From: Escherichia coli
Lineage (GTDB): Bacteria > Pseudomonadota > Gammaproteobacteria > Enterobacterales > Enterobacteriaceae
Direction: 5' to 3' (one strand)
DNA length: 64,000 nucleotides
Assembly (NCBI RefSeq): GCF_044324875.1
Contig: NZ_CP172185.1
Shown one piece after another: positions 24,259 to 27,479 of the stretch. The number at the start of each line of letters is the position of its first letter. Position 1 is the first letter of the stretch. A model generated the notes under the pieces. It saw only the letters and a program-made list of their open reading frames with translations. It made no database searches and was not told the DNA's origin. A program made the position numbers and the translations under genes.

Positions 24259-24544
24259 GGGGTTATGTCCGGTTCCCTGATATTAAATGGGGTGTGATGG
24301 TTTTTATTTTCGTTGTAATCACATAAGGCGCACATGATACCGGAGTTAATCATTTCAGGGGAAGAAGCGAACGGCGAGTTCTTGATGGTGATTCCGGGAA
24401 AGATGCTGTTTTGCAGCTTTTGCGTGATGCTTATGAAGCAAGTACGCAAAATTGTATCGGTTGGCTAACCCTTCTTCTTTAGAGTCATAGTGCCCTTTAA
24501 GATTAAGTTGTAATATAAATGCATCTTAATGAGATGGAGGCAGC

Positions 24545-24889
24545 ATGTCCGGCAAGCGTATCTCTCGTGAAAAACTGACGATTAAAAAAATGATCGATCT
24601 TTATCAAGCGAAATGCCCGCAGGCGTCAGCGGAGCCGGAGCATTATGAGGCGTTGTTTACTTACGCGCAAAAGCGGCTGGATAAATGTGTGTTCGGCGAA
24701 GAGAAACCAGCCTGTAAGCAGTGTCCGGTGCACTGTTACCAGCCTGCAAAGCGTGAAGAGATGAAACAGATTATGCGTTGGGCTGGGCCGCGAATGCTGT
24801 GGCGTCATCCGATCTTAACCGTGCGTCATCTCATCGATGACAAGCGTCCGGTGCCGGAGTTGCCAGAAAAATATCGTCCAAAGAAATAA
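24545..24889 (+). CDS. ygbA: Conserved Cys-rich protein YgbA
   Basis: 114 aa ORF next to mutS; size and position match ygbA as recalled. Confidence 0.7.
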   Translation: MSGKRISREKLTIKKMIDLYQAKCPQASAEPEHYEALFTYAQKRLDKCVFGEEKPACKQCPVHCYQPAKREEMKQIMRWAGPRMLWRHPILTVRHLIDDKRPVPELPEKYRPKK

Positions 24890-24927
24890 ATCTGCCGGAG
24901 AGCCATACTCTCCGGCAAATAAGGCGC

Positions 24928-25356
24928 TTACGCTTTGGTGGCAATCAGGATGGCTGATGCTTTGATCAATGCAATAACGCGCGAGCCAGTGGTGAGTTTC
25001 ATTTCATCCTGACTTTCATTTGTTACCACTGCCACAATTTCAAAACCCGCATCCGTTTTGATATGGACAGTGGCGTTCACTGCTCCTTCGGTGATTGTCG
25101 ACACGCTGCCAGCAAACTGGTTGCGAGCAGAGAATTTCAGTCCACAGTCTTCCGTTGCCAGCGTTACCCACGGGGCTTTAATCAGGGCAATCGCTTCTTT
25201 CCCTTTCGCCAGACCCAGCGCTTGCTGGCTGCTGTGAGTCACAATTGCCACCAGCTTTGCACCACCTGCCAGCGTCAGTTCTACTTCATCATTCACAGCG
25301 CCCATTGCTACTGCGCTAACTGTTCCGGTTAATTGATTTCTTGCTGAAACTGCCAT
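24928..25356 (-). CDS. Molybdate-binding di-TOBE molbindin (Mop/ModG-like)
   Basis: Two tandem ~70 aa TOBE-like halves (ARNQLTGTVS...; ARNQFAGSVS...); start set at ATG 25356 with AGGAGG RBS. Confidence 0.75.
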   Translation of the reverse strand: MAVSARNQLTGTVSAVAMGAVNDEVELTLAGGAKLVAIVTHSSQQALGLAKGKEAIALIKAPWVTLATEDCGLKFSARNQFAGSVSTITEGAVNATVHIKTDAGFEIVAVVTNESQDEMKLTTGSRVIALIKASAILIATKA

Positions 25357-25400
25357 ACTGCCTCCTTTCATTGAATGTTGATCGAGTATAACCACATCTG

Positions 25401-27479
25401 TTAAATCAATGCCGATTTATCAATTCCCAGTCGCTTCATCCGTGACAGCAGAGTCGTGCGTTTCAGCCCCAGACGTTGCGCAGCGCCTTTAGGCCCGGCA
25501 ACCACGCCGTTGGTTTCTTTCAGCACGCGAACAATCAACTGATATTCATCTTCGCCCTCCTGGGCGACAACCGTTGCGGCAGGCGGCGTTTCAGGCTCCG
25601 GTAAAGCAATATCAGGCAATGACAGCTGCAGCACGTTGCCGCGTGTTAGCAATACCGCGCGCTCAATGACGTTTTCCAGTTCGCGTACGTTACCCGGCCA
25701 CTCCATGTTGCTCAAGGTGCGCAGCGTCTCGGCAGGAATGCTGTCGATATTGCGCCCCAGACGACGGGCAATTTTGAAGGTAAAGGCTTTCGCCAGCAGC
25801 GGAATATCTTCCGGACGCTCGCGTAGTGGCGGCAGGTGAATCGGGAATACGTTCAGGCGGTAATAGAGATCGCTACGGAACTCACGGTCGGCGACCATTT
25901 TTTTCAGATCGCGGTTAGTTGCGGCGATTAGACGCACGTCCGTCTGAATGATTTTGTTGCTGCCGAGACGTTCAAACTCCTGTTCCTGTAATACACGCAG
26001 CAACTTCGGCTGTAACTCCAGTGGCATATCGCCCACTTCGTCGAGGAACAGGGAGCTTTTATCCGCCAGTTCAAAACGACCGATACGCTGGGCGCTGGCA
26101 CCGGTAAAAGCCCCACGCTCATGACCAAACAGATCGCTCTCCAGCAATCCGGCAGGCATCGCCGCGCAGTTCATTTTGACCATGCGGCGATTATTACGCC
26201 CACTGAGATTATGGATAGCACGGGCAATCAGCTCTTTACCCGTGCCAGTTTCACCGAGGATCAGCACGGTACTGTCACTTTGCGCCACCATTTCAACTTG
26301 TTTAAGCACGCTGTACATGGCTTCGCTGCGGCCAATAATCTCGCCAAATTCACTATCAACATTGTTGAGCTGCTCGGTCAGGGCGAGGTTTTCATCAACC
26401 AGCCGTTCTTTCAGACGATGGATTTCCTGATAGGCGAGGGCGTTATCGACAGCGATTGCCACACGTTCGGCAATCTGGCGCAGTAAATTCAGATTGGTAG
26501 TGGTAAACACTTTCTCTTCGCATTGCGCCAGTTTCAGCACGCCCAGCATGGTGTCGCCAGACATCAGCGGTAACAGGCACAAGGTTTGAATCTGGTTGCC
26601 CCAGGTGTCGAACAACATGCGTTCATAGGGGGCTAAATCGTCCCGCTCGTGGAGATTAATCAGCAGCATCTCTTTGCTTTTGAACACGCGTTCGGTGAGG
26701 GTTCCGGCTTCATCGACTTCGCTCTGTTCGTGGGCGGGATGCTGTTTATCAAGATAGTGAGTGGAGTAGATGTTGAGTTTGTTTTTACGGTGGCTGCGTA
26801 AGACGATGCTGATATCGTCAATGTCGAAGTAGTAATGGATTTCTTTGGCGACTTCGCTGACCAGTTCGTCCATATCCAGGCGGGAAAGCACCGCGTTGGT
26901 AATGGCAACCAGGATGCGGAAGTTATCGCGCTCCCGGCATAACAACTCATAGTCGACATTATTGACGACGCGGCTCTGGATTTGTTCGGTGACGACAGAA
27001 ACGATCTGCGTAAATGTTTGCAGACGATTGAACTCTTTTTCGCTCCAGGGGCGATCGTCATAACGAATAAATTCACAGCCACCAAAAATATGCCCTTCCG
27101 CCGCCAGTGGCATCAGGCAATAGTGACCAAATTTGGGGTATAGCCCACCTGCGGCCAGCTGCGGCCAGGTTTCACAAAATTCTTCGTAACTGCAATGCAG
27201 CGTATCAGGGCGCGACAAAATGCTGCGTACCGGACCGTGTGCCAGAACAGTTTCGTCTTCATATTTAATGGGGGTGTCTTTTTCACGCGATGCGTAATAA
27301 GACGCACGTTGAGTCTGCGCTTGCCACAACACAATAGCCGCGTTGTCGGCGAGCGCAGAACGCTTTACCAGTTGCGAAAGAGCCTCACACAGCGAGGCCA
27401 GATCGGGCTGCTGCAATAGTGTCCGAGTGATGTCGAACAACCCTTGTTGTCCGAGATCACTCATCGGTGTATATGACAT
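25401..27479 (-). CDS. fhlA: Formate hydrogenlyase transcriptional activator (sigma54 enhancer-binding protein)
   Basis: Start set at MSYTPMSDLGQQGLFDITR...; GAF domains, AAA+ motif [15 protein letters not shown]-terminal HTH. Confidence 0.95.
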   Translation of the reverse strand: MSYTPMSDLGQQGLFDITRTLLQQPDLASLCEALSQLVKRSALADNAAIVLWQAQTQRASYYASREKDTPIKYEDETVLAHGPVRSILSRPDTLHCSYEEFCETWPQLAAGGLYPKFGHYCLMPLAAEGHIFGGCEFIRYDDRPWSEKEFNRLQTFTQIVSVVTEQIQSRVVNNVDYELLCRERDNFRILVAITNAVLSRLDMDELVSEVAKEIHYYFDIDDISIVLRSHRKNKLNIYSTHYLDKQHPAHEQSEVDEAGTLTERVFKSKEMLLINLHERDDLAPYERMLFDTWGNQIQTLCLLPLMSGDTMLGVLKLAQCEEKVFTTTNLNLLRQIAERVAIAVDNALAYQEIHRLKERLVDENLALTEQLNNVDSEFGEIIGRSEAMYSVLKQVEMVAQSDSTVLILGETGTGKELIARAIHNLSGRNNRRMVKMNCAAMPAGLLESDLFGHERGAFTGASAQRIGRFELADKSSLFLDEVGDMPLELQPKLLRVLQEQEFERLGSNKIIQTDVRLIAATNRDLKKMVADREFRSDLYYRLNVFPIHLPPLRERPEDIPLLAKAFTFKIARRLGRNIDSIPAETLRTLSNMEWPGNVRELENVIERAVLLTRGNVLQLSLPDIALPEPETPPAATVVAQEGEDEYQLIVRVLKETNGVVAGPKGAAQRLGLKRTTLLSRMKRLGIDKSALI

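Follow-up and report, generated by a model that had tools for sequence, protein, structure and literature searches.

A ModG-type molbindin gene directly downstream of fhlA, probably ancestral in Enterobacteriaceae and deleted in K-12-type Escherichia coli

A small gene that follows fhlA in Escherichia coli is probably an ancestral ModG-type molbindin gene, which ends the hyp-fhlA cluster and was deleted in the lineage of K-12. Its product would buffer or store an oxyanion in the cytoplasm and is likely to be made together with FhlA. The gene was analyzed in a stretch of 64,000 nucleotides (the window), where it occupies positions 24928 to 25356 on the minus strand, stop codon included. It is real but ordinary: by homology it encodes a small molybdate-binding protein, and it is already annotated. 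The RefSeq record of the protein, WP_000301062.1, carries the name "TOBE domain-containing protein," and "molybdopterin-binding protein" is used as an alternative name among E. coli genomes.

The initial annotation had described, at these coordinates, a 142-amino-acid protein made of two TOBE domains, with a strong ribosome-binding site and a position immediately downstream of fhlA on the same strand, and all of this was confirmed. The open reading frame runs from an ATG at 25356 to a stop codon at 24930 to 24928, and the predicted N terminus reads MAVSARNQLTG. A Shine-Dalgarno sequence, AGGAGG, lies on the minus strand at 25366 to 25361, 4 nt ahead of the ATG, and almost every spacer of the orthologues retains (A/T)GGAGG. 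The ATG at 25356 was taken as the start because the orthologues are 142 amino acids long and share the same methionine. A longer reading of 155 amino acids from a GTG at 25395 was rejected on the grounds of orthologue length, the shared methionine start, and the position of the ribosome-binding site.

Directly upstream on the same strand lies fhlA (25401 to 27479, minus), whose stop codon is at 25403 to 25401. Its 692-amino-acid product was identified as the formate hydrogenlyase activator by NF011958 (1,548.6 bits) and by the RefSeq annotation of an identical stretch. The two genes are separated by a spacer of 44 nt (25357 to 25400). On the other side, the convergent ygbA (24545 to 24889, plus), identified by NF007713/NF007716 and existing annotations, encodes 114 amino acids here.

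The signals around the gene were then considered. A terminator scan called no terminator-like site within the 44-nt spacer, and the fold of the spacer (-4.3 kcal/mol, z = +0.3) was no better than that of shuffled sequence. Between the gene and ygbA, a GC-rich hairpin on the minus strand (24920 to 24890) with a 14-bp stem and a T-run forms an intrinsic terminator (-23.3 kcal/mol, z = -5.3). Thus, with a terminator-free spacer and a strong terminator after the gene, read-through from fhlA is the simplest expectation. No sigma-70 consensus promoter was called in a scan of 24300 to 25900. Escherichia, Citrobacter, and Kluyvera share the conserved block TGTGG[CT]TATACT (25396 to 25385, minus) within an otherwise variable spacer, and similar TATA(A/C)(T/A) boxes are present in the spacers of other genera. 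The TATACT at 25390 to 25385 may be the -10 element of a promoter without a -35 element, or it may be another signal; on sequence conservation it is a lead only. When the ModE operator pattern TATAT-N7-TAYAT was searched for with up to 2 mismatches, no site was found between 24900 and 25700, and the number of matches in the window as a whole (38 found versus 44 expected) was at chance level.

The domain assignment is clear. A Pfam search of the 142-amino-acid protein returned PF03459 (TOBE) twice, at residues 4 to 66 (E = 1.6e-17) and at residues 76 to 137 (E = 6.2e-16), with no further significant domain. The NCBIfam profile TIGR00638 (Mop) matched in 2 stretches with 142 bits against a cutoff of 55. 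Among solved structures, the best match by sequence was ModG of Azotobacter vinelandii (1h9j; E = 5e-33, residues 1 to 140), with 49% identity over the full length, followed by the di-Mop domain of E. coli ModE with 39%. An AlphaFold model built from a 30-sequence alignment had a mean pLDDT of 96.7 and superimposed on ModG 1h9j with a TM score of 0.95 and a root mean square deviation of 1.3 Å, versus a TM score of 0.89 for the ModE di-Mop domain.

For the ligand positions, we relied on the molbindin Tub. As reported in a 2025 structure paper, the type-2 sites of Tub are formed by Ser4, Arg6, Lys60, and Ala61 of one subunit and Ser40 of its neighbor, the type-1 sites by the backbone of Ala20, Val21, and Asn22, and both are similar to the sites in ModG, Mop, and ModE (PMC11980592). 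Tub numbering applies directly to domain 1 and with an offset of 72 to domain 2. On this basis, the type-2 residues of Tub (S4, R6, S40, K60, and A61) correspond to S4, R6, T40, K60, and A61 in domain 1 and to S76, R78, T112, K132, and A133 in domain 2. The type-1 residues A20, V21, and N22 recur as A20, V21, and N22 in domain 1 and as A92, V93, and N94 in domain 2. In both domains, these positions are invariant or nearly so in a set of 30 homologues with identities as low as 49%. Both domains therefore look competent for oxyanion binding, as far as conserved residues can indicate.

Comparison with known systems places the protein closest to ModG. A. vinelandii ModG (PDB 1H9J, 1H9K, and 1H9M) likewise consists of two tandem Mop/TOBE domains only, in about 140 amino acids, and both proteins carry the ligand motifs SARN, T..S, and KA(P/S) in both domains. 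An existing catalogue of gut bacteria already lists the two-TOBE "TudG/ModG" architecture (PMC11980592). In the single-domain molbindins of the Mop/Tub type (Clostridium pasteurianum MopII, 1GUG; Eubacterium limosum Tub, 9BEB), domains of about 70 amino acids form hexamers; each domain of the present protein aligns residue for residue with Tub, but here two such domains are fused, as in ModG. The C-terminal di-Mop part of ModE (1H9R/1H9S and 1O7L) is the same two-TOBE module, and its domain-1 ligand residues are identical. However, its second Mop domain has NADN in place of SARN and NAD in place of KAS. The protein is thus ModG-like rather than ModE-like, since the second domain of ModE has lost the ligand motifs while both domains here keep theirs.

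Two other identities were rejected. ModE itself has an N-terminal DNA-binding winged-helix domain, which is missing here; only ModE residues 124 to 261 align, and NF007957 reached 88 bits against a cutoff of 369. For an ABC ATPase of the ModC/WtpC type, only the C-terminal 65 or so residues of the profiles matched, far below the cutoffs. In NCBIfam, the ModE, ModC, and WtpC profiles all gave sub-threshold partial matches confined to their C-terminal parts.

In architecture, in full-length sequence and fold similarity, and in ligand positions, the protein has the features of ModG-type molbindins. Its setting differs. The modG gene of A. vinelandii, which is encoded with the mod transport and regulation genes (modEABC), contrasts with the gene here, which ends the hyp-fhlA cluster, has fhlA and ygbA as neighbors, and belongs to a host that fixes no nitrogen. 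A setting among mod genes characterizes the type example ModG and does not define the family.

The order of genes was surveyed in one genome per species and then by tblastn with HypE, FhlA, YgbA, and MutS of the window. Among 41 species-representative loci with a TOBE protein at least 80% identical, 36 encoded FhlA immediately upstream in the same orientation, with spacers of 36 to 101 nt, most often 44 nt. Species with this arrangement include Escherichia albertii, a cryptic Escherichia lineage, Citrobacter, Klebsiella, Raoultella, Kluyvera, Enterobacter, Pluralibacter, Yokenella, Lelliottia, and Kosakonia. Contigs of Escherichia fergusonii showed the order fhlA-TOBE-ygbA, as in the window. 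Two of the 41 loci, from a Phytobacter and from Kosakonia sp. S29, had HypE upstream instead of FhlA, and the remaining 3 had other neighbors. The order hypE-TOBE recurred in one more Phytobacter locus (80% identity). In the three loci in which the gene followed hypE with no fhlA between them (L042, L047, and L066), the gap was 132 nt in L042 and L066. Since the fhlA-TOBE order extends across Enterobacteriaceae, the gene is ancestral to this locus, and K-12 represents the derived state.

More distant or relocated copies were also encountered. Homologues at 67 to 73% identity in Hafnia, Edwardsiella, Cedecea, and Mangrovibacter had unrelated neighbors, and some closer homologues, in Pantoea and Salmonella, were also found in unrelated contexts. 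The link with fhlA may therefore be positional only. The Salmonella enterica copies (87 to 89% identity; L005, L006, and L089 to L091) did not adjoin fhlA but lay near fimbrial usher and chaperone genes and IS66/IS21 fragments, in L089 also near a YedY-like molybdoenzyme pair, which suggests relocation or reacquisition.

On the side of ygbA, a Raoultella contig had fhlA-TOBE followed by a sitABCD-like transporter, and in Raoultella and Klebsiella (L007 and L021 to L026) a sitABCD-like metal ABC transporter separates the TOBE gene from ygbA. In Salmonella, SPI-1 with sitABCD occupies the corresponding position.

Taken together, homology and position suggest the following picture. The protein would assemble, as ModG does, into a trimer with six Mop domains, and as many as eight oxyanions (molybdate or tungstate) would be trapped at the subunit interfaces. 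The trimer would buffer or store the cytoplasmic oxyanion pool. Transcription would probably occur by read-through from fhlA, with a weak promoter of the gene itself as a possible second source, and the protein would be made under fermentative conditions, when FdhH, the Mo- and Se-containing component of formate hydrogenlyase (FHL), is assembled. Full expression of fdhF and hyc needs ModE-molybdate in addition to FhlA and formate (PMC3149613). A buffer or store of molybdate encoded next to fhlA is coherent with this, because molybdate is already known to matter for the FHL regulon. The gene is dispensable for FHL, since FHL operates in K-12 and Salmonella with no such gene at the site. A full-text literature search found no paper on the enterobacterial gene or on a link between fhlA and a molbindin; a paper on the nitric oxide transcriptome of CFT073 mentions ygbA, and the TOBE gene is absent from it.

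A storage or sensing role tied to FHL, as the initial annotation proposed, is plausible from homology and position. If the protein were a regulatory sensor and not a store, the loaded form would act on FhlA, on ModE, or on molybdenum cofactor insertion and tune hyc and fdhF to molybdenum. The tight and long-conserved adjacency to fhlA, the known dependence of hyc and fdhF transcription on molybdate (PMC3149613), and the use of the same di-Mop module as the sensor of ModE would all fit such a function. However, the protein lacks a DNA-binding domain or any other output domain, and molybdate-dependent control of hyc persists in K-12, which lacks the gene. In addition, the gene of Phytobacter follows hypE without an intervening fhlA, and some homologues lie far from fhlA. 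We therefore regard a sensor as unlikely, and equally doubtful is the idea that the protein relays or senses molybdate specifically for the FHL regulon. Storage or buffering is preferred.

An equally improbable variant is that the protein binds tungstate in the manner of TudG, either sequestering tungstate so that molybdoenzymes such as FdhH are not mis-metallated or supplying tungsten. TOBE sites take both oxyanions, and whether molybdate or tungstate is the physiological ligand is not readable from the sequence (PMC11980592). Many proteins of ModG architecture in gut microbes are predicted to be linked to tungsten (PMC11980592). The di-Mop domain of ModE, moreover, crystallizes with tungstate (1h9r). 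On the other hand, no tupABC or tungstoenzyme gene adjoined the gene in any locus examined. E. coli also depends on molybdenum enzymes, and this was counted against tungstate.

The distribution of the gene within E. coli was determined in 5,426 complete genomes. The segment was present in 1,892, always chromosomal and in a single copy, and the copy was full length in 1,889 of these and partial in 3. The exact protein sequence occurred on at least 1,000 contigs in a public protein collection, and CFT073 encodes an identical protein (WP_000301062.1, locus C_RS15650). Named examples taken from BLAST, which carry no phylogroup assignment, include CFT073, LF82, ATCC 25922, an O25b:H4-ST131 strain, and APEC O2:K1:H4 as carriers and K-12 derivatives, O157:H7, ECOR29, and O111:H8 as strains without the gene.

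Alignments with K-12-type sequence located the difference precisely. The segment absent from K-12-type E. coli corresponds to 24928 to 25399 of the window (about 470 bp; net difference, 466 bp) and has its edges 2 nt past the fhlA stop and at the stop codon of the TOBE gene. In a K-12-like chromosome (L001), the fhlA stop is followed by two bases and then by the terminator hairpin that elsewhere is found after the TOBE gene, with ygbA beyond it. A 141-bp probe over the K-12 junction had a full-length match in 3,505 of the 5,426 complete genomes. Gene state and deletion junction together accounted for 5,397 of them, with one shared junction, and no repeats or mobility genes were found at the segment borders in these alignments. 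On this evidence, the K-12 state is a derived deletion of about 470 bp common to the 3,505 genomes, and the lineage that includes K-12 and O157:H7 would have lost the gene through one clean event.

The initial annotation had placed no gene at this position in K-12, rightly so, but its description of the gene as inserted between ygbA and fhlA did not hold. Horizontal insertion of a strain-specific gene would agree with the lack of this gene in K-12 and in 65% of the complete E. coli genomes, and the Salmonella copies do sit in islands bearing insertion sequences and fimbrial genes. Yet the same position is occupied in E. albertii, E. fergusonii, the cryptic Escherichia lineage, Citrobacter, Klebsiella, Kluyvera, Enterobacter, and others, the divergence of the gene tracks that of its flanking genes, its GC content is normal, and its borders are free of repeats and mobility genes. 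Insertion is therefore highly improbable, and ancestral presence followed by deletion in the K-12 lineage is the reading we retain. With regard to divergence, FhlA and MutS of E. albertii are 98% identical in protein to those of the window, and a dS of 0.37 for the TOBE gene is in line with this.

The reading frame was intact in all 40 gene sequences translated (the window and 39 loci), and dN/dS was 0.03 to 0.09 overall: 0.026 against E. albertii and 0.05 to 0.09 against other genera. The open reading frame is thus not a chance reading frame, and judged from these ratios the gene is under strong purifying selection. That it could be a decaying, functionless remnant heading for loss, as its loss from the site at least twice (in K-12-type E. 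coli and in Salmonella, whose copies lie elsewhere) and the partial copies in three E. coli genomes might suggest, is hardly credible in view of this selection, the nearly complete set of full-length E. coli copies, and the conserved ribosome-binding site and ligand residues.

Here, a conserved fhlA-linked gene seems to have escaped experiments because it is deleted in K-12, which adds another case of K-12 as a derived, gene-poor state. The carriers include the B2 pathogens CFT073 and ST131. If the protein buffers molybdate for FdhH, carriers, which make up about a third of sequenced E. coli, may better withstand molybdenum scarcity or tungstate during fermentation. If the protein were a relay or sensor, conserved in most Enterobacteriaceae yet lacking in K-12, molybdenum-dependent control of FHL in natural E. 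coli would depart from the textbook picture drawn from K-12. The practical value is small, and knowledge of molbindins is unchanged.

Some further differences were observed around the locus. In the K-12 deletion haplotype, the 3' end of ygbA differs (24880 to 24930 of the window; 1995 to 2040 of L001), giving a product of 117 amino acids versus 114 in the window. The terminator hairpin also differs between the haplotypes, with GCCGGACAGG...CCTGTCCGGC in the K-12 type versus GCCGGAGAG...CTCTCCGGC in the window, and both forms are stable.

The neighboring mutS-rpoS region is variable as well. At lower coordinates of the window, rpoS is followed by the hydroxyarylic-acid decarboxylase genes vdcB and vdcC (16072 to 19759, plus). 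The pphB allele (20048 to 20716, minus) shares only about 86% DNA identity with the pphB carried by most E. coli genomes and is far more divergent than the neighboring mutS or fhlA. Between pphB and mutS lies a gene for a 287-amino-acid Sel1/TPR-repeat protein (20729 to 21592, minus) with a low GC content of 0.41 to 0.44; the full segment was present in only 181 of the 5,426 complete E. coli genomes, with a best match of 98.9%, and it appears to be a short foreign insertion within the mutS-rpoS region, which is polymorphic. In strain AF40, fhlA-ygbA is 100% identical to the window, yet a block from ygbI to ltnD/otnK, unlike that of the window, follows mutS-pphB; the two sides of mutS therefore differ in history.
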